This document shows, piece by piece, positions 313-6,512 of a DNA stretch of 6,512 nt. The translations under genes were made by a program, and so were the position numbers. Source of the stretch: a virus; IMG/VR virus record IMGVR_UViG_3300005309_000026, positions 1 through 6,512 of that record, one strand, 5' to 3'. Each line of letters opens with the position of its first letter. The stretch's first letter is position 1. The notes below the pieces were generated by a model. The model was not told where the DNA came from and did not search any database. It worked only from the letters and a program-made list of their open reading frames with translations.

Positions 313-1118
313 CTGTTACTTTAACTGGAACTATGTGTCGCGGTTACAATAAAGATGGCAAACTTGTTTATGATGGTTATTTAAATACCATAATTAATCC
401 AGCTTACGATCAAACAGCAGAACGTGAACAAAAATATTTACCTCTCGAAACAGTCGCACAAAAAGTTATTGATAATGCACAAAATAATGATAGAGAAGCT
501 CAAGTAGCTACTACTGCTGCTGCTGCTGATGTTATGAAAGATGCTGAAAATGACAATGTAAAAGCTAGACCCATTGCTGATCAATTTGAGCAATCTTCTA
601 CAACTGAAAATGCTGATGCAGATGCTCAAGCAAATAGTAATACTTCGACTGGTGAAGCTAAACCCAATGCCGAAACTGGCACAACTGATTTAGCACTGCA
701 ATTTCCAGTTTTTTGTAATTGGACTCCAACGATTTGTCGTGCTGCTGATGTTGTTATAAATTTTCCGAATAAATTAGAAGATTGGTATAACGAATCTGTT
801 AAATCAATTTCTGATGCATATACGGCAATAAAAGAATGGGCTACTACTGAAAAAGATAAAAATCAAGATGATACTGAAATTGAAATATTAGATGACGCTG
901 TCCCAAACTTAGACAAAGGTTTATTTCAAGCTTCTGGTCAATGCCCCCCTGATTTTAGCTATGCATTTCCTTTGCCATTAGGTGGCTCTTATAACATTAC
1001 ATATAGCTATTCAACTGCATGTAATTGGTTTTCTAAAATTTATTATGTCGTGATCTTGGTTGCTTCAATTATAGGCTTAAAAATAGTTACTGGTGCGGAT
1101 GGTAATAAAGATGGCTAA
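1..1118 (+). CDS. pIII-like minor coat / adsorption protein, 3' part. The full gene is 6029-6200 plus 1-1118 = 1,290 nt, 429 aa
   Basis: The frame is open from the first base (first full codon at 3) to TAA 1116-1118. It has an N-terminal domain with 6 Cys (168-338) and an acidic Ala/Asn/Thr-rich linker (471-689). It ends in a C-terminal hydrophobic anchor, KIYYVVILVASIIGLKIV. It lies just after pVIII and before the pVI/pI genes, as in Ff phages. Confidence 0.8.
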   Translation, partial: KGSAKITPNASQVAKVLGRGVAGYALSVAVQEMLGAVDWVLDPANNRIKYFDPTSCTSNGSACPHAQKYYQCYSRGMATCANYFDNPQSACNDVLTKNSVGAVSVTLTGTMCRGYNKDGKLVYDGYLNTIINPAYDQTAEREQKYLPLETVAQKVIDNAQNNDREAQVATTAAAADVMKDAENDNVKARPIADQFEQSSTTENADADAQANSNTSTGEAKPNAETGTTDLALQFPVFCNWTPTICRAADVVINFPNKLEDWYNESVKSISDAYTAIKEWATTEKDKNQDDTEIEILDDAVPNLDKGLFQASGQCPPDFSYAFPLPLGGSYNITYSYSTACNWFSKIYYVVILVASIIGLKIVTGADGNKDG

Positions 1119-1395
1119 CTTATCTACTTTATTAAATAGTGCAGGTGAGTTTTTTTCTAAATCATTTGTAAAAAATTCTCTTAAAGGTGCTGGCATCGGC
1201 TTAGGTTCTTATTTTGCTTTACAAGGACTTTATTCAACTTTTCTTTCATATCTTCAATCTAATTTCAGTCAATTGGCTGACATATTTTATGCGATCAATT
1301 TATCAGGTTTAGACGTTGGTCTTTCTATTGTTGTATCTGCTGTCAATATTCGAATCTTTATGAATTCTAAACAAATATTTTTAAGGAAACTCTAA
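1111..1395 (+). CDS. pVI-like small hydrophobic minor coat protein (94 aa from ATG 1111; alternative starts GTG 1093, ATG 1099)
   Basis: ATG 1111 overlaps the pIII stop (ATGGCTAA), which suggests translational coupling. The product has hydrophobic stretches (GAGIGLGSYFALQGLYSTFL, GLDVGLSIVVSAV). Its position between pIII and pI matches Ff gene VI. Function is assigned by position only. Confidence 0.6.
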   Translation: MANLSTLLNSAGEFFSKSFVKNSLKGAGIGLGSYFALQGLYSTFLSYLQSNFSQLADIFYAINLSGLDVGLSIVVSAVNIRIFMNSKQIFLRKL

Positions 1396-1397
1396 CA

Positions 1398-2912
1398 ATG
1401 AATTATTTAGTCGTTGGTAAAAATGGTTCAGGTAAAACATATTTCTGTGTGAAATTAATCAAAGATTTTGATGATCAAAATAAAACTAATATTTCATCAA
1501 ATAGTCTTTCTTGTTCACAAAACTATGAACTGCTCAAAGATAGAGATATTGATCAATTACTTAAGGATTTTTCTCTAACACTTGAACAACTCGTTTTAGA
1601 CAATATAAAAGTATATTCACGATACAAAGACAGTGAAGAATTTTTGATTGATCTCGCATTATTTCAAAATCTAGAAGATGCCATTGTATTTGATGATTAT
1701 TTTAGATTTCACTTGATGTATAACGATTTTATTAAGTTCGTTTTAAAACAACATGATTTAAAGCTCGAATTTCTTAAACCTGTACATAAACTTTATTCTG
1801 ATATTAATGGCTTAAAAATTGATGGTGTTGAAACTAGCCCAGAAGACTGGAGAACTGCTCCGCTTGGTTCAAAGATTTTTTATGATGAATTTCAAGATCG
1901 ACCTGAATACTTATTTGATGGTAATCGACCTTCAAAAAACCCCATGATTTTAGAATTATCTAAAATTCGTCACTATGATATTGATCTTTATTTGATTACC
2001 CCTGATTCTGACAATCTTCATAAATCACTACGAAAAATCATTCATGTAATGTACTTTGTCAAACGACCTCATGGTAATCCGCAATGCTGTTCTGTTTATA
2101 CATTTGACCAGTTTTTATCTAATCCTCGTGCAGCTGCTGATTCTAAACGTGAACCTAAAAAATATTCAGAATATGAATTATTAAGCTATAAAAAATCAAT
2201 TCAACGACTTTATACCAGTGCTGCTAATCATTCATCAATGCCCTTTCAAATCCCATGGAAATGGCTTCGTAATGCTTCACTCATTATTATTGGTTTTGGC
2301 ATTATTATTTCTATGCTCTTTAAGATTCCAATCTTTGGTTTTTTTGTAGATGCTGTCAAAGGCATGATGGGAGGTGATAATGCTGTCAAGGATGTTATGA
2401 AACCTAATATGAATCAAAACGGTAAACAAACCGCTTCAAATGCTTCACAGAGCCAACAAACACAATCTTCTAATACAATTGATTTAAATAATGAATGCCG
2501 TAAAGCTGTGAATGTAGAAAAGCCTGAGTGTGTCGAATGGTTTAATAATTTGTCAGAACAAAATGCTTCTGTCAGTTCTACTGGAGAGGTTTACGTTAAA
2601 TATGATTCTTCAAATCCTTATGATTTTAAACCCGAACCTAAAATTCAAGTTGTAGATTATCCTAGACTTAGTGGTTGTGGTCGTGATCTGCATGGTCGTT
2701 ATGTTGCTTTTGATCAACAGGGCAATGTAATGCCACAAATAAAACAATCTGACTGTAAAAAATGGATTAATGGAGAAAGACTCTTTGACTATACAAAACA
2801 ACATACTGTTGCACAGCAACCAATGCAACAACCACAACAGCAATCACAAGAGAAGTTAACACAAGAACAAATAGAAAAAATTCAGGAAGCTAAAAAACAA
2901 GGTTTGATCTGA
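1398..2912 (+). CDS. pI / Zot-family phage assembly ATPase, 504 aa
   Basis: Walker A GKNGSGKT (1416-1439). Walker B KIFYDEF (D163/E164 at 1884-1889). IRHYDIDLYLITPD resembles M13 pI ARKLGWDIIFLVQD. A single transmembrane segment ASLIIIGFGIIISMLFKIPIFGFFV lies at about 2274-2348, followed by a 187-aa C-terminal domain. AAGGAA lies upstream of the ATG. Confidence 0.9.
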   Translation: MNYLVVGKNGSGKTYFCVKLIKDFDDQNKTNISSNSLSCSQNYELLKDRDIDQLLKDFSLTLEQLVLDNIKVYSRYKDSEEFLIDLALFQNLEDAIVFDDYFRFHLMYNDFIKFVLKQHDLKLEFLKPVHKLYSDINGLKIDGVETSPEDWRTAPLGSKIFYDEFQDRPEYLFDGNRPSKNPMILELSKIRHYDIDLYLITPDSDNLHKSLRKIIHVMYFVKRPHGNPQCCSVYTFDQFLSNPRAAADSKREPKKYSEYELLSYKKSIQRLYTSAANHSSMPFQIPWKWLRNASLIIIGFGIIISMLFKIPIFGFFVDAVKGMMGGDNAVKDVMKPNMNQNGKQTASNASQSQQTQSSNTIDLNNECRKAVNVEKPECVEWFNNLSEQNASVSSTGEVYVKYDSSNPYDFKPEPKIQVVDYPRLSGCGRDLHGRYVAFDQQGNVMPQIKQSDCKKWINGERLFDYTKQHTVAQQPMQQPQQQSQEKLTQEQIEKIQEAKKQGLI

Positions 2913-2953
2913 CAGTGTTAACACTGTCATAAGTTTTTTAACAAAAAAAACTT
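2911..2953 (+). terminator. Hairpins immediately after the pI stop (probable rho-independent terminator)
   Basis: GACAGTG-TTAA-CACTGTC (2911-2928) overlaps the TGA stop and is followed by a T6 run (2934-2939). A second AT hairpin AAGTTTTTT/AAAAAACTT lies at 2931-2953. Confidence 0.5.
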
Positions 2954-2990
2954 ATCGTTAAGCTATCGCAATGAAGAACTCTAATAACAA

Positions 2991-3139
2991 CGTCATGTCT
3001 ATGACGCTTAGATTCGTGCCTACGAATCGACACAATCACAATAGAATATTTCCCCCTCTGATTACAAAAAAAATAATGTAAACTTTGAGCCAAATTTACA
3101 GAAGCGTCGGAGTATTACGACGCTGAACAGAGGGAATAT
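2991..3139 (+). other. Cluster of ssDNA hairpins in the large intergenic region; candidate packaging signal and/or minus-strand origin
   Basis: CGTCAT-gtct-ATGACG at 2991-3006. GATTCGT-gcct-ACGAATC at 3011-3028. A long-range stem ATATT(cc)CCCTCTG 3046-3060 pairs with CAGAGGGAATAT 3128-3139. That stem encloses TGTAAAcTTT-gagcc-AAATTTACA (3077-3100) and AGCGTCG-gagtatta-CGACGCT (3103-3124). The position between the assembly gene and rep equals the Ff intergenic region. Confidence 0.5.
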
Positions 3140-3377
3140 GAAACATATCGCACATAAAGTTTTTTTCTTTAGTAATGATAAAATTATTGTTTTATATAAA
3201 GTTTATTTTTTTAAAACCTATTTTTGTATTTATGAAAATTTTTTAGATTTTGATCGTGACTTTAAATCGGATGCATCTAGATATGTTGATTTTACATATT
3301 TATCAGATCAGCAAACGCAAGATTTTTTCTCTACTCTAGATATGTCTAATTTTAAAGATAAACCACATTTTCAATGA
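3138..3377 (+). CDS. Hypothetical 79-aa protein (Phe/Asp/Tyr/Lys-rich); coding status uncertain
   Basis: An 80-codon open frame in the most AT-rich part of the genome, where stop codons should be frequent. Codons mostly end in T, as in the other genes. GAGGG lies 3-4 nt before the ATG, but it is also part of the 3128-3139 stem. No recognisable motif. Confidence 0.35.
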   Translation: MKHIAHKVFFFSNDKIIVLYKVYFFKTYFCIYENFLDFDRDFKSDASRYVDFTYLSDQQTQDFFSTLDMSNFKDKPHFQ

Positions 3378-3435
3378 TGTAATATTATTGTTGTTGTTAA
3401 ACTTATGTGTTATTGCTGGTGAAATATTTTTAAAA

Positions 3436-3466
3436 TATTGATAACATGACAACATCTTTTTAAAAG
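3436..3466 (+). promoter_or_regulatory. Candidate rep promoter/operator (or origin core): TTGATA -35-like hexamer plus two 8-bp iterons
   Basis: TATTGATAACATGACAACAT (3436-3455) is 19/20 identical to 5065-5084. TTGATA lies at 3438-3443 and TAAAAG at 3461-3466, with a 17-bp spacing. The iterons are GATAACAT 3440-3447 and GACAACAT 3448-3455. AT-only palindromes flank the block at 3423-3439 and 3456-3466. Confidence 0.5.
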
Positions 3467-3468
3467 AC

Positions 3469-3501
3469 AAAAAAAAACCCATCTTGGCGGGCGGGTTTTT
3501 T
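3469..3501. other. Symmetric A-tract / GC / T-tract hairpin between the candidate promoter and the rep start
   Basis: AAAAAACCC (3472-3480) pairs with GGGTTTTTT (3493-3501) around a 12-nt loop. It looks the same on both strands. Confidence 0.4.
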
Positions 3502-3538
3502 CGGGTCTGTGTACTGCTAACACATAGGTTTATTATAA

Positions 3539-4108
3539 ATGAATATTGATTTAAGTCAAAAAAAATTGGCTCTTGGTATACTTACGAAATCTCACTCCAC
3601 AATAGATTCACAAAGGATTAGTGATTATTTACTGCAAGATCAGGCTTCTAAACTTCTTAAACATAAATTTCGTGTAAAGTATTGTTTAAAAAGAAAAATT
3701 AAAAGAACTGAAAATGTAAATGTGTGTTGGAATGAATCTACAAAAAAAGCACATTATGCAAATGTTATTAGATGTGGTTCAGTTTGGGTTTGTCCTGTTT
3801 GTGCAAAAAAAATTACTGAAAAAAGAAGAAATGAATTAGCTTTGATCAATAAAAAGTGGAAAGAAGGTATTACTTTATTTTCTCCAGTTGAACAATCTAA
3901 AAAAATTGTTGGTCCTCCTCGTTATTTAGAAGAGTTCGTTCATGGTTATACTTATCTTTTAACTCTTACTAATCCTCATTATGTTAATGATCGTTTAACG
4001 GATCTTCGAGAAAAACAAAAAAAAGCTATGAAATCATTTTTTTCAGACCGTAAGGGACAATATATTTTTAATCAGTTACTTGGTAAACGCTTTCATATCA
4101 CAAACTAA
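3539..4108 (+). CDS. Rolling-circle replication initiator (HUH superfamily, pC194/Rep_1-like; Ff gene II analogue), N-terminal fragment, 189 aa, ending at an in-frame TAA
   Basis: Cys cluster CGSVWVCPVCAKK, typical of pC194-type Rep N-terminal regions. Rep motif 1 YLLTLTNPH (LLTLT 3956-3970). Same reading frame as 4154-4825. Confidence 0.85.
   Translation: MNIDLSQKKLALGILTKSHSTIDSQRISDYLLQDQASKLLKHKFRVKYCLKRKIKRTENVNVCWNESTKKAHYANVIRCGSVWVCPVCAKKITEKRRNELALINKKWKEGITLFSPVEQSKKIVGPPRYLEEFVHGYTYLLTLTNPHYVNDRLTDLREKQKKAMKSFFSDRKGQYIFNQLLGKRFHITN
4106..4108 (+). other. Single in-frame TAA interrupting the rep reading frame
   Basis: 3539 and 4154 are in the same frame. The only stop between them is TAA 4106-4108 (context ACA AAC TAA GAA ATA). 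Confidence 0.95.
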
Positions 4109-4825
4109 GAAATAACTTACGGGCAAAATGGTTGGCATCCACATCATCATATTTTGATTTTTTCAGATAAATATTTATCAATTCGGGATTTTGATTCTAT
4201 TCATGAATTATTAGCTGATCATTGGAGTGATTCACTGCATAAAGCGGGTATTCGTAAAATTAAATCTAATGAAAAATTTATTGCTTGTGATCTTCAGGAC
4301 GGAACTTTTGCAGATCAGTATATTGGTAAATGGGGTATAGAGCATGAAATGACAAAAGGTCATGTCAAAAAAGGACGTGATACATATACTCCTTTTGATT
4401 TGCTTAGGCTATCTGATAAAGATGATTTAATTTTTGAGAAGAAGCCTTCTAAATTGTTTCAAGAATTCGCAATTGCCTTTAAAGGTGCTAGACAATTAGT
4501 TTTTAGTCGTGGTCTTAAATATGCTTTTGCTGTTCAGGAAAAAACAGATGATGAAATTATGGATGAAACACTTGAAGAATCTGTTTTATTGACAACAATC
4601 GAAGATATGGTGTTTAGACTTTTATGTAAATATAAAAAACGTGCTGAATACTTAGATTGTATAACTCAAGATAAATTGAACGGTGTTGTTGGTAGTGGAT
4701 CTGCCGAATTACTTGTTAGTAACTTGGCAGAAAATGAAATATTAATTTTAGAAGAAATGAATTCTCAAACTTTCTCTATTGTTGAATTACCTTTTGATGT
4801 TCCTAGAGTTTTACCTATTCAATAA
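4109..4825 (+). CDS. Rolling-circle replication initiator, C-terminal portion (238 codons). It carries the HUH and catalytic Tyr motifs. The first possible start is TTG 4154, downstream of the HUH motif
   Basis: 4109-4153 reads EITYGQNGWHPHHHI with no ATG/GTG/TTG. The HUH motif HPHHHIL lies at 4136-4156. The Tyr motif QYIGKWG (Y at 4319-4321) fits the Y-x-x-K motif 3 of superfamily I Reps. The stop is TAA 4823-4825. Confidence 0.8.
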   Translation, partial: EITYGQNGWHPHHHILIFSDKYLSIRDFDSIHELLADHWSDSLHKAGIRKIKSNEKFIACDLQDGTFADQYIGKWGIEHEMTKGHVKKGRDTYTPFDLLRLSDKDDLIFEKKPSKLFQEFAIAFKGARQLVFSRGLKYAFAVQEKTDDEIMDETLEESVLLTTIEDMVFRLLCKYKKRAEYLDCITQDKLNGVVGSGSAELLVSNLAENEILILEEMNSQTFSIVELPFDVPRVLPIQ

Positions 4826-5003
4826 TAATATTCCCGTCTTTTGCAATTGCTTTTTTGAATGCTTCATTTATTAGTAAATGAAGTATTTCACTTTCTTTAA
4901 GCACTGGCATATTCCTTTCCAATCTTTGCATATTAACTTCTTTTGATATTTTCATTAATGAAATTTCTTCATTTTTTTTAATCCTTAAATATGCTGAAAT
5001 CAT
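4815..5003 (-). CDS. Small antisense protein, 62 aa; candidate ribbon-helix-helix (Arc/Mnt/CopG-like) transcriptional regulator
   Basis: It is the only plausible minus-strand gene and is divergent from the 5134 operon across the iteron region. The N-terminal ISAYLRIKK is strand-like. The C-terminal KESEILHLLINEAFKKAIAK resembles helix B of P22 Arc (NSEIYQRVMESFKKEG, from memory). The SD (AGG) is 11 nt from the ATG, which is long. The 3' end overlaps the rep 3' end by 11 bp. Confidence 0.5.
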   Translation of the reverse strand: MISAYLRIKKNEEISLMKISKEVNMQRLERNMPVLKESEILHLLINEAFKKAIAKDGNIIIE

Positions 5004-5066
5004 TGATAAATAAACCTTTCTTTGTTTAACGATTTTTAGATTCTATCAACAAGTTTATTTGATGTA

Positions 5067-5110
5067 TTGACAACATGACAACATGACAACATACTATTTG
5101 TACAAATAAT
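5067..5110 (+). promoter_or_regulatory. Promoter/operator of the structural-gene operon: perfect -35, three tandem 8-bp iterons and a 14-bp palindrome
   Basis: TTGACA at 5067-5072. GACAACAT x3 exactly tandem at 5069-5092. Candidate -10 boxes are TACTAT 5092-5097 and AATAAT 5105-5110. The palindrome TATTTGTACAAATA lies at 5095-5108. The whole block sits 24-67 nt upstream of ATG 5134. Confidence 0.55.
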
Positions 5111-5133
5111 GCTTCTATTAACAGGATAGAAAA

Positions 5134-5373
5134 ATGGCTATGAAAACACTTATAGAACAAGCTCAAATTATGAAAGGCATGAAAAAGGATGGTGTAACTC
5201 CTTATTTTTATGTCGAAGTTTTAGAAAAAGTACGTAAATACATTAATCCTGATAAACCGCAAGATTCTGCAACTCTTCTTGCATTAGCTGATTCTGCTCA
5301 AGTTGTTCCAGAACTTGTTTTACATCAAAGAAGTAATCAACTTGTTTTTTCTTCTTTAGATTTAGAGAATTAG
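5134..5373 (+). CDS. Hypothetical 79-aa protein. Its position, first gene before the coat genes, is where inoviruses usually encode the ssDNA-binding protein (gene V analogue)
   Basis: AGGA at 5123-5126 lies 7 nt before the ATG. The frame is clean to TAG 5371-5373. I recognise no sequence motif, so the function is positional inference only. Confidence 0.6.
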   Translation: MAMKTLIEQAQIMKGMKKDGVTPYFYVEVLEKVRKYINPDKPQDSATLLALADSAQVVPELVLHQRSNQLVFSSLDLEN

Positions 5374-5380
5374 TAAAAAA

Positions 5381-5554
5381 ATGCTCGCTTTGTGTCAACT
5401 CGATGAAACGACACAGCAAGTACAAAGCTGTGTTGAATATACATTTTCAATAATTCCACAGCTTTCATTAACCGAAGCGACTTTGTTGGGTTGTAGTTAC
5501 TGGTTAATTCTAGTAGTTGCATCATCAGCAAAGGCTTTAAAACAATCGTTATAG
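5381..5554 (+). CDS. 57-aa protein with a hydrophobic C-terminal half; candidate pVII/pIX-type minor coat protein (below the ORF-track size cutoff)
   Basis: Manual translation gives MLALCQLDETTQQVQSCVEYTFSIIPQLSLTEATLLGCSYWLILVVASSAKALKQSL. The ATG lies 7 nt after the upstream stop. Its own stop TAG 5552-5554 overlaps the pVIII SD. It sits directly upstream of the major coat gene, as genes VII/IX do in Ff. Confidence 0.5.
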   Translation: MLALCQLDETTQQVQSCVEYTFSIIPQLSLTEATLLGCSYWLILVVASSAKALKQSL

Positions 5555-5563
5555 GGGGTTCTT

Positions 5564-5860
5564 ATGAACTTAAAAAATGTAGAGTTAATGGAAAATTCAA
5601 TGAATTCTCCAGTTGCTTATGTTTCTGATGAACAACATCAAAACAATGTTTCAACTTTTAATCAATCTTTAAAACTTGGTGTTGCTTTAGCTATCGCTAC
5701 TTTAGCAGTTAATGCCAATGCCGCTATGCCTGATATTGATGTTGCTGATATTTTGACTTATATCGGTTTACTTGTTGCTGCTGTTGCAACTGTAGCTAGT
5801 GCATCTTTGATGATCTGGTTAGCTGCTAAAGGTATCAAAGCAATTCGTGCTGCCTTCTAA
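5564..5860 (+). CDS. Major coat protein (pVIII-type) precursor, 98 aa; predicted mature protein 45 aa
   Basis: The SD GGGGG (5554-5558) lies 5 nt before the ATG. The leader ends LKLGVALAIATLAVNANA/A, an A-x-A site after codon 53 (5720-5722). The mature protein AMPDIDVADILTYIGLLVAAVATVASASLMIWLAAKGIKAIRAAF has the canonical layout: acidic N-terminus, hydrophobic core, basic C-terminus. Confidence 0.85.
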   Translation: MNLKNVELMENSMNSPVAYVSDEQHQNNVSTFNQSLKLGVALAIATLAVNANAAMPDIDVADILTYIGLLVAAVATVASASLMIWLAAKGIKAIRAAF

Positions 5861-5883
5861 TATTAATTAGAAATTCAATAAAA

Positions 5884-5935
5884 CGCTTTCGAGCGGAAAA
5901 AAATGCATCGAGGGCGCGCAGATGCATTTTTTTTT
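5884..5935 (+). terminator. Rho-independent terminator after the major coat gene (symmetric, potentially bidirectional)
   Basis: The stem AAAAAAATGCATC (5897-5909) pairs with GATGCATTTTTTT (5921-5933) around an 11-nt GC-rich loop. The T run is 9 long (5927-5935). A small CGCT-TTCG-AGCG hairpin precedes it at 5884-5895. Ff phages also terminate strongly after gene VIII. Confidence 0.75.
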
Positions 5936-5954
5936 ACGTGATGGAGGCGTTCAA

Positions 5955-6026
5955 ATGTCAATAATTTTCCCTTATTTCGTTTTGCTTTGCTTCATTTCAA
6001 CAGGTCATATAATTTTTGGACGTTGA
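5955..6026 (+). CDS. 23-aa hydrophobic mini-ORF (MSIIFPYFVLLCFISTGHIIFGR); candidate small membrane or virion-tip protein
   Basis: GGAGG (5943-5947) lies 7 nt before ATG 5955. This is the best Shine-Dalgarno sequence in the genome. TGA 6024-6026 ends 2 nt before the pIII ATG 6029. The size and hydrophobicity recall Ff pVII/pIX (32-33 aa). Confidence 0.4.
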   Translation: MSIIFPYFVLLCFISTGHIIFGR

Positions 6027-6028
6027 TT

Positions 6029-6512
6029 ATGAAAAAAATATTTATTACGTTTCTAACTTTCGTTCTTTATTTTAATTCTTTTACGTCTGCACATGCTCAA
6101 ACTGTGGGCGGTTGGTCTGTCGGTGGTGGCATTGCGCAAGGTGCTTCAACTGTATACAACGGAACAAGAAAAATTTTAATCGGCGGTAAAGAATTTATAC
6201 AAAAAGGTTCTGCAAAAATTACACCAAACGCATCTCAAGTTGCAAAAGTACTCGGACGAGGGGTTGCAGGTTATGCGCTATCTGTTGCTGTTCAAGAAAT
6301 GCTTGGAGCCGTTGATTGGGTTCTTGACCCAGCAAACAATCGAATTAAATATTTTGACCCTACCTCTTGTACTTCAAATGGTTCAGCTTGTCCTCATGCT
6401 CAAAAATACTATCAATGTTATTCGAGGGGCATGGCTACGTGTGCAAATTACTTTGATAATCCGCAATCTGCTTGTAATGATGTTTTAACAAAAAATTCTG
6501 TAGGTGCTGTTT
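6029..6512 (+). CDS. pIII-like minor coat / adsorption protein, 5' part (runs off the window end; continues at 1-1118 on the circle)
   Basis: ATG 6029 opens MKKIFITFLTFVLYFNSFTSAHA/QTVGGWSVGGG..., a typical signal peptide with an AHA-Q cleavage site. The frame stays open to the window end. After subtracting 6200 it is in phase with the 99-1118 ORF (6203 = position 3). Confidence 0.8.
   Translation, partial: MKKIFITFLTFVLYFNSFTSAHAQTVGGWSVGGGIAQGASTVYNGTRKILIGGKEFIQKGSAKITPNASQVAKVLGRGVAGYALSVAVQEMLGAVDWVLDPANNRIKYFDPTSCTSNGSACPHAQKYYQCYSRGMATCANYFDNPQSACNDVLTKNSVGAV
6201..6512. repeat. Terminal direct repeat copy 2, identical to 1-312
   Basis: Same comparison as copy 1. The reading frame opened at 6029 continues seamlessly into it. 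Confidence 0.95.

Follow-up and report, generated by a model that had tools for sequence, protein, structure and literature searches.

The window, meaning the whole stretch of 6,512 nt analysed here (IMG/VR record IMGVR_UViG_3300005309_000026), consists of a 6200-nt circle followed by a 312-nt wrap-around, in which bases 1-312 are repeated exactly at positions 6201-6512. The G+C content of the record is 32%, no tRNA genes are encoded in the genome according to ARAGORN, and the whole 6,512-nt stretch has no match among GenBank phages by megablast. The main genes and the candidate cis elements are listed below.

1398-2912: Zot/pI-like morphogenesis ATPase (phrog_197, E 5.3e-40)
ending at 1395: DUF2523 protein (DUF2523 is recorded on identical contigs)
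6029..1118, across the wrap point: pIII-like protein of 429 aa
5564-5860: Coat_B-like protein of 98 aa (Phage_Coat_B, E 7.2e-5, 23.2 bits, just below the 23.5 cut-off)
3539-4825, plus strand: rep, the replication gene, encoding a putative rolling-circle initiator (phrog_11698 match, homologs)
3438-3455, plus strand: upstream copy of the 18-mer TTGATAACATGACAACAT, candidate origin or operator, about 85 nt 5' of rep
5067-5092, plus strand: downstream copy, TTGACAACAT GACAACAT GACAACAT (three 8-mer iterations), candidate origin or operator

Judged by homology, this gene content fits a small filamentous (inovirus-like) phage of about 6.2 kb. A Zot/pI-like ATPase, a small major coat protein and a small circular genome, which are the features of Tubulavirales-type phages, were all found, and PF05707 and DUF2523 are on record for contigs identical to this genome. 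The downstream repeat copy is located between divergent genes of 62 and 79 aa. The 18-mer (3438-3455 and 5067-5084) occurs exactly in 25 related loci, some of which encode Rep proteins only 44-47% identical, and both candidate cis elements are intact in this record.

The replication gene appears in the record as two open reading frames. ORF 3539-4108 (189 aa) and ORF 4154-4825 (223 aa, TTG start) share one frame and are separated by the TAA at 4106-4108. The features of this region are the following.

3683-3802, plus strand: four invariant cysteines, C49, C79, C85 and C88 (51-sequence alignment)
3956-3970, plus strand: motif 1, L-L-T-L-T, residues 140-144 (T142, L143 and T144 invariant), in a predicted strand at 137-144
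4106-4108, plus strand: in-frame TAA, Rep codon 190; close relatives all have TAT (Tyr)
4108-4112, plus strand: five-base patch holding both differences from the contigs L001 and L002
4109-4117, plus strand: E191-x-T193, directly after the stop, in the first strand of the HUH hairpin (E191 and T193 invariant in 51 of 51 sequences)
4136-4156, plus strand: HUH motif H200-P-H202-H-H204-I-L206, outside both listed ORFs
4154-4825, plus strand: downstream ORF of 223 codons with a TTG start, the C-terminal remainder of rep and not a separate gene
4319-4330, plus strand: Y261-I-G-K264, candidate catalytic tyrosine motif (Y261 and K264 invariant in the 51-sequence alignment)
4823-4828, plus strand: natural terminator of rep, tandem TAA TAA

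The TAA lies seven codons upstream of the block that contains the HUH motif. The 15 codons that follow it (4109-4153) read GAA ATA ACT TAC GGG CAA AAT GGT TGG CAT CCA CAT CAT CAT ATT, with no ATG, GTG or TTG among them, and together with the TTG codon they translate as E-I-T-Y-G-Q-N-G-W-H-P-H-H-H-I-L, HUH motif included. The downstream ORF starts at the last residue of this motif and consequently lacks the metal site, and in this record the motif is reachable solely via readthrough of the TAA. Beyond the stop the frame stays open for 238 codons; it contains one in-frame stop, the terminator, whereas the two alternative frames of this stretch contain 14 and 41. The first-pass annotation had described this layout correctly: every ORF coordinate, the shared frame, the single TAA separator and the lack of start codons in the intervening 15 codons were verified, and its positions for HPHHHIL (4136-4156), LLTLT (3956-3970) and YIGK (4319-4330) are right, as is the assignment of motif 1 and the Cys cluster to the upstream side of the stop and of the HUH and Tyr motifs to the downstream side.

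On the evidence of homology, positions 3539-4825 constitute one gene, with 428 sense codons in relatives and an interruption at codon 190 here. The two ORFs are read as one gene because the alignment of the conceptual 428-aa product to phrog_11698 spans both from end to end (residues 5-410, profile positions 2-386 of 394, E 3.7e-89) and the homologs of that product are single proteins: 933 database proteins match it, nearly all of them undivided and of about 390-480 aa. Acinetobacter homologs that are 45-46% identical carry the names "rolling circle replication protein Rep63" or "protein rep" and hit PF01446. This family (Rep_1) is matched by 29 of the 51 aligned homologs (best E 1.3e-16), and many of the 933 carry a precomputed PF01446 hit. 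Neither the conceptual protein nor its closest match, P0001, hits PF01446 at E<=0.1 or E<=0.001; the sole Pfam hit of the conceptual protein is PF23343 (REP_ORF2-G2P, E 0.023), which is below the cut-off. NCBIfam holds no family for this Rep or for the Acinetobacter homologs, and a scan of GTDB genomes found no close Rep relatives.

The three Rep_1-type features, namely motif 1, the HUH motif and a Tyr motif downstream of it, are all found in the conceptual protein. A single uninterrupted polypeptide that carries the three is absent in this record and present in L001 and L002, the two contigs described below. In the 51-sequence alignment the invariant block comprises E191, T193, G195, G198-W-H-P-H202, H204 and L206, and within the HUH motif H200, P201, H202, H204 and L206 are invariant in 51 of 51 sequences; E191 is a candidate third metal ligand. 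The N-terminal Cys cluster may be zinc-finger-like, in a part of the structural model where pLDDT is low. The AlphaFold2 model (mean pLDDT 76.8) contains a confident beta-hairpin of strands 183-195 and 198-209, the latter, which bears the HUH histidines, with a block-mean pLDDT of about 87-91. The stop, at residue 190, would fall in the middle of the first of these strands. Foldseek against PDB returned nothing at E<=0.001; the weak hits were the AAV2 Rep OBD (probability 0.91, E 0.057) and, lower, MVM NS1, PCV2 Rep and Helitron. In the PDB sequence search the one match was SIRV1 ORF119, across the HUH block, at an insignificant E of 0.33. The fold support is weak, and the family placement therefore depends on sequence homology and motifs.

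By these criteria the Rep appears to be an ordinary single-polypeptide, 428-aa HUH rolling-circle initiator of the pC194/Rep_1 type. It has in common with the pC194/pUB110-type (PF01446 Rep_1) initiators motif 1 (xLTLT), the HUH motif (HPHxHxL) and an invariant Tyr-x-x-Lys, all in the same order. It differs from them in scoring below the PF01446 threshold, in its greater length (428 aa), in its N-terminal four-Cys cluster and helical C-terminal extension, in belonging to a filamentous-phage genome and not to a plasmid, and, in this record, in the TAA that interrupts it. It would thus be a new yet unremarkable member of the pC194/Rep_1-type initiators of inovirus-like phages and small plasmids.

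The origin of the stop becomes clearer when the record is compared with genomes that are otherwise identical to it. P0001 (428 aa) is identical to the conceptual product at 426 of 428 residues and reads ...ITN-Y-E-V-TYG... across the site. It is encoded by an intact gene on L001, which is Logan contig SRR6464610_2026 (6230 nt), by an intact gene on L002, which is JGI contig 3300005307 Ga0074308_1000190 (6209 nt), and on a third contig; the identical Zot protein is carried by the same three contigs. L001 and L002, which come from different pipelines and may or may not stem from one biological sample, show no differences from each other over 6200 nt. The present record differs from them at exactly two positions, 4108 and 4112. 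At 4108 they have T and this record has A, which changes TAT (Tyr190) to TAA; at 4112 they have G and this record has A, which changes GTA (Val192) to ATA (Ile). The wild-type context of the site is ACTATGAAGTAAC. Two independent substitutions would fall within 4 nt of each other on a 6200-nt circle with a chance of about 8/6199, or 0.0013 by simple arithmetic, and for this reason the paired change is most likely the result of one local event. A collection of 153 billion gene positions includes no entry for the 189-aa fragment or for the 223-aa one. Exact-pattern scans of IMG/VR and metagenome contigs with both alleles found neither version. Since the identical copies are intact and neither fragment is on record, the TAA stop is private to this record.

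The wider relatives give a concordant picture. The first-pass annotation had proposed that the 428-aa product be aligned to find the residue opposite the stop, and had also asked whether related phages carry the same TAA. The residue is Tyr (TAT) in all 12 close loci, which have 73-90% Rep identity and were drawn from IMG/VR, JGI, Logan and ENA, and all 12 read TAT GAA GTN at the codons of the stop region. A further 160 related loci were fetched from IMG/VR and metagenome contigs. Among the distinct contexts with E-x-T in register, position 190 is sense in 97 of 97 (L, F, Y, T or other), and at position 192 V predominates, I accounting for about 10%. Open frames were compared across 139 distinct Rep reading frames, those with an upstream stop inside the contig. 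With 7 open codons before the HUH block this record is an extreme outlier among them; the next smallest open stretches are 57 codons (L013, a rearranged scaffold) and 121 (L085), and all others are at least 172. None of the other 138 frames has a stop near the HUH motif. The same TAA was thus found in 0 of 12 close loci, 0 of 97 contexts and 0 of 138 other frames. Damage of other kinds is visible in about 2% of the related metagenomic Rep genes (L013, L085 and L071). The stop is not recurrent in these comparisons, and nothing conserved depends on it.

The TAA is accordingly no part of the phage design, and the two-product feature that had been flagged at this site is not real biology. The first-pass annotation had offered three explanations, of which a recent nonsense mutation and a sequencing error survive, while readthrough fails, given that identical genomes carry TAT. 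Between the two survivors we infer the cause from the circumstances of the change, and the inclination is towards an error of this record over a real null allele. The error is favoured because the change is paired and clustered, because it is absent from the other assemblies searched, because a Rep-null phage would have no advantage and because of the terminal overlaps of the sequences.

That the patch is an error of this record is thus considered probable, with confidence a little above even. The patch at 4108-4112 would stem from a local fault in base calling, in the consensus or in assembly merging, or from a later edit; the real phage would carry TAT...GTA and make full-length Rep. Taken at face value, the record would have translation stop at 4108, halfway along the first hairpin strand, and no nickase would be made. 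Several observations point in this direction. L001 and L002 are 100% identical to each other while this record departs from them only at 4108 and 4112, so that two changes fall within 5 nt and none in the other 6195 nt, a distribution that a mis-called stretch fits better. The allele is absent from every other assembly searched, the ORF fragments are not on record, and the 12 close loci, the 97 contexts and the 139 frames set this record apart in the same way. A Rep-null point mutant, moreover, would have no obvious replicative advantage by which to become the majority of a sample. Overlap-merging assembly steps can introduce local consensus errors, and the terminal overlaps of 312 nt in this record and 9 nt in L002 are atypical for k-mers and could reflect such an assembly; this argument is a weak one, however, as the wrap-around was possibly added when the sequence was prepared. 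Other considerations reduce the confidence placed in an error. It is deduced from assemblies and not from reads, and assembled consensus bases are usually accurate; T-to-A together with G-to-A is not a signature attributable to a particular sequencing platform; ssDNA phages mutate fast and multi-nucleotide mutations occur; and broken copies exist in nature, as the roughly 2% of disrupted relatives illustrate.

A real and very recent null allele is a serious possibility, though one given distinctly less than even confidence. It would have arisen by one multi-nucleotide event, TAT GAA GTA to TAA GAA ATA, in one lineage or sub-population. The genome would then make just the 189-aa N-terminal fragment, with the Cys cluster and motif 1, and would be unable to nick its own origin, so that it would be a dead end or would persist by means of Rep that co-resident wild-type genomes provide in trans and that acts on the intact cis elements. 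Trans action is possible for the initiators of rolling-circle plasmids and of Ff, and in a chronic infection by filamentous phage each cell contains many copies of the replicative form. Such a lesion must be very young, because there are zero other differences from the wild type and 238 codons remain open downstream. These two facts are compatible with a fresh null allele, as are the intact 18-mers and the disruption of rep elsewhere among relatives (by rearrangement in L013, and in L085 and L071). The first-pass annotation was also right to infer that the gene is not an old pseudogene. Against a real mutation, the allele was not seen in any other public assembly searched, and a point-nonsense mutant gains neither in size nor in replication, which leaves it no advantage for becoming the consensus of the sample. 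A search of the genome for a donor of CTAAGAAATAAC, made with template switching and quasi-palindrome correction in mind, found only the site itself, which leaves a template-switch origin of the pair without a donor in this genome. Recombination of the patch from a related strain was rejected, no close relative having TAA or ATA at these codons.

A genome with a real TAA allele would need Rep from elsewhere, acting in trans. A stronger version, in which the TAA allele is not only real but maintained in a population, so that the phage is a Rep-null "cheater" inovirus with intact origin and operator elements that uses wild-type Rep in trans, is considered very improbable; such a phage would express only the 189-aa Cys-cluster fragment, which might attach to the origin and serve as a regulatory or interfering protein. 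Should the allele be real and also frequent in reads, it would represent a small natural defective filamentous-phage genome living on helper Rep, a matter of modest interest.

Programmed or suppressor-dependent readthrough, which would yield an abundant 189-aa protein and rare full-length Rep in the manner of Ff gII/gX or Qbeta A1, is very unlikely. The resemblance to Ff gII/gX is limited to the abstract idea of two products from one replication gene. In Ff, gX is made from an internal in-frame start and corresponds to the C-terminal part of gII, without any stop codon taking part, whereas the split here is due to a stop that identical genomes lack, and no ribosome-binding sequence is evident before the TTG at 4154. 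In Qbeta A1, too, a long open frame follows an in-frame stop, but there the stop is a leaky UGA that is conserved, while the stop here is UAA followed by G, is not conserved and is accompanied by no stimulatory structure. The 238 open codons and the identity of the wild-type residue, a Tyr, are what readthrough can claim in its favour, since near-cognate or ochre-suppressor tRNAs can insert Tyr at UAA. In yeast, Tyr is among the tRNAs that misread stop codons (PMC5289835). UAA is nevertheless a substrate of both release factors, RF1 and RF2, and of the three stops it is the one least read through (PMC5289835); here it is followed by G. RNA folding at the site is no more stable than that of its own shuffles in either the mutant or the wild-type sequence (z +0.65 to +0.91), and Rfam has no element overlapping the site; the genome encodes no tRNA, and no recoding signal is present. 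The paired V192I change would have no role in such a scheme, and the stop is missing from the identical genomes and from every relative examined. The first-pass annotation had itself stated that uninterrupted close relatives without readthrough would leave the stop no regulatory meaning; the identical genomes are intact and no recoding signal was found, and the two-product proposal is abandoned. Because just two bases, one of them creating the stop, set this record apart from otherwise identical intact copies, the TAA is most reasonably taken as an error in the sequence or as a newly arisen knock-out, not as a regulatory device.

The two remaining readings are extremely improbable. A two-piece Rep, in which the N-terminal 189-aa protein and a C-terminal fragment re-initiated at TTG 4154 assemble into a nickase, has to its credit that both ORFs together cover most of the protein, but it is excluded by residues 190-205 being in neither piece: the invariant E191, T193, G195, W199, H200, H202 and H204 would be lost and the predicted central beta-hairpin 183-195/198-209 destroyed, no purine-rich ribosome-binding sequence is evident in ...CATCCACATCATCATATT before TTG 4154, and the 223-aa fragment is not on record. 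Reassignment of TAA to sense (e.g., Tyr) by an alternative genetic code of the host would agree with the Tyr aligned in relatives, but it is rejected because TAA terminates four other genes of this genome where their homologs lead one to expect the end, and also rep, in the form TAATAA; in the identical genomes the codon is TAT, the conserved genes of this genome contain no other in-frame TAA, and we know of no bacterial code that reassigns TAA.

The case is instructive mainly as a caution, in that an in-frame stop in an essential and otherwise pristine metagenomic phage gene mimics recoding, and comparison with identical public copies exposes the apparent recoding as a private two-base lesion. 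For annotation, positions 3539-4825 are best entered as one rep gene, marked as a pseudogene or a suspected sequence error, and neither as two genes nor as a readthrough gene. The replication proteins of Pseudomonas phage PMBT54, Phage blackswan219-6 and Propionibacterium phage B5, distant homologs with the same genomic role, are far more divergent, with 23-31% identity over 63-85% of the protein, and all three are annotated as uninterrupted genes.

The window has two copies of an 18-mer, TTGAYAACATGACAACAT (3438-3455 and in the 5067-5092 region), of which the downstream one runs on into three tandem GACAACAT units. Twenty-five related loci carry the exact 18-mer, among them phages and plasmids with a Rep just 44-47% identical (L024, L027, L030, L108 and L114), and its usual site is directly past the small divergent gene downstream of rep. 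Because TTGACA/TTGATA lies within it, the 18-mer may represent the double-strand origin or nick region, an iteron-type element to which Rep binds, or a promoter-operator that is shared. Three small conserved genes occur in the window, none of which gave a Pfam match:

4815-5003, minus strand: divergent gene of 62 aa, phrog_5642
5134-5373: gene of 79 aa, phrog_21135
3138-3377: gene of 79 aa, without a family match

The end of the 62-aa gene overlaps the end of rep, and its position adjoining the conserved 18-mer suggests that it encodes a regulator. On the other side of rep, just upstream of the gene, a hairpin was detected:

3477-3492 (region 3468-3500): G+C-rich hairpin, with A9 adjoining one end and a T-run adjoining the opposite end

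This element looks like a bidirectional intrinsic terminator. An Rfam match to Trp_leader over 3411-3504 was sub-threshold (26.7 bits vs. a gathering score of 41) and is probably due to chance.

Apparently disrupted rep genes were also observed among relatives. The rep homolog of L013 (ENA scaffold ERZ23497778 scaffold_128) lies in two halves, 332-763 and 2821-3678, with the break at residue 144/145, immediately past motif 1. The approximately 2 kb between them codes for a pIII/TspB-like protein, a DUF2523 protein and residues 1-61 of Zot, the morphogenesis ATPase, which directly adjoin the C-terminal part of Rep. Either this genome is rearranged or defective, or it has been mis-scaffolded. 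In two further relatives, both from IMG/VR, the frame around the HUH motif stays open for an unusually short distance, with 121 codons upstream of the motif in L085 and 90 codons downstream of it in L071. The rep genes of both may be truncated or disrupted, which puts the base rate of broken rep among metagenomic relatives at very roughly 2%. One 452-aa Rep homolog with 60% identity (P0020) belongs to an assembled eukaryotic transcriptome (EukProt TRINITY_DN383), where it presumably reflects contamination by a bacterium or phage.

The phage's pIII-like adsorption protein spans the wrap point, which is why the ORF list gives only an internal piece of 339 aa:

6029-6512, then 1-1118: pIII-like adsorption protein of 429 aa, phrog_7568

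Its layout comprises a signal peptide, a Cys-rich N-terminal part, an acidic low-complexity linker and a C-terminal membrane anchor.
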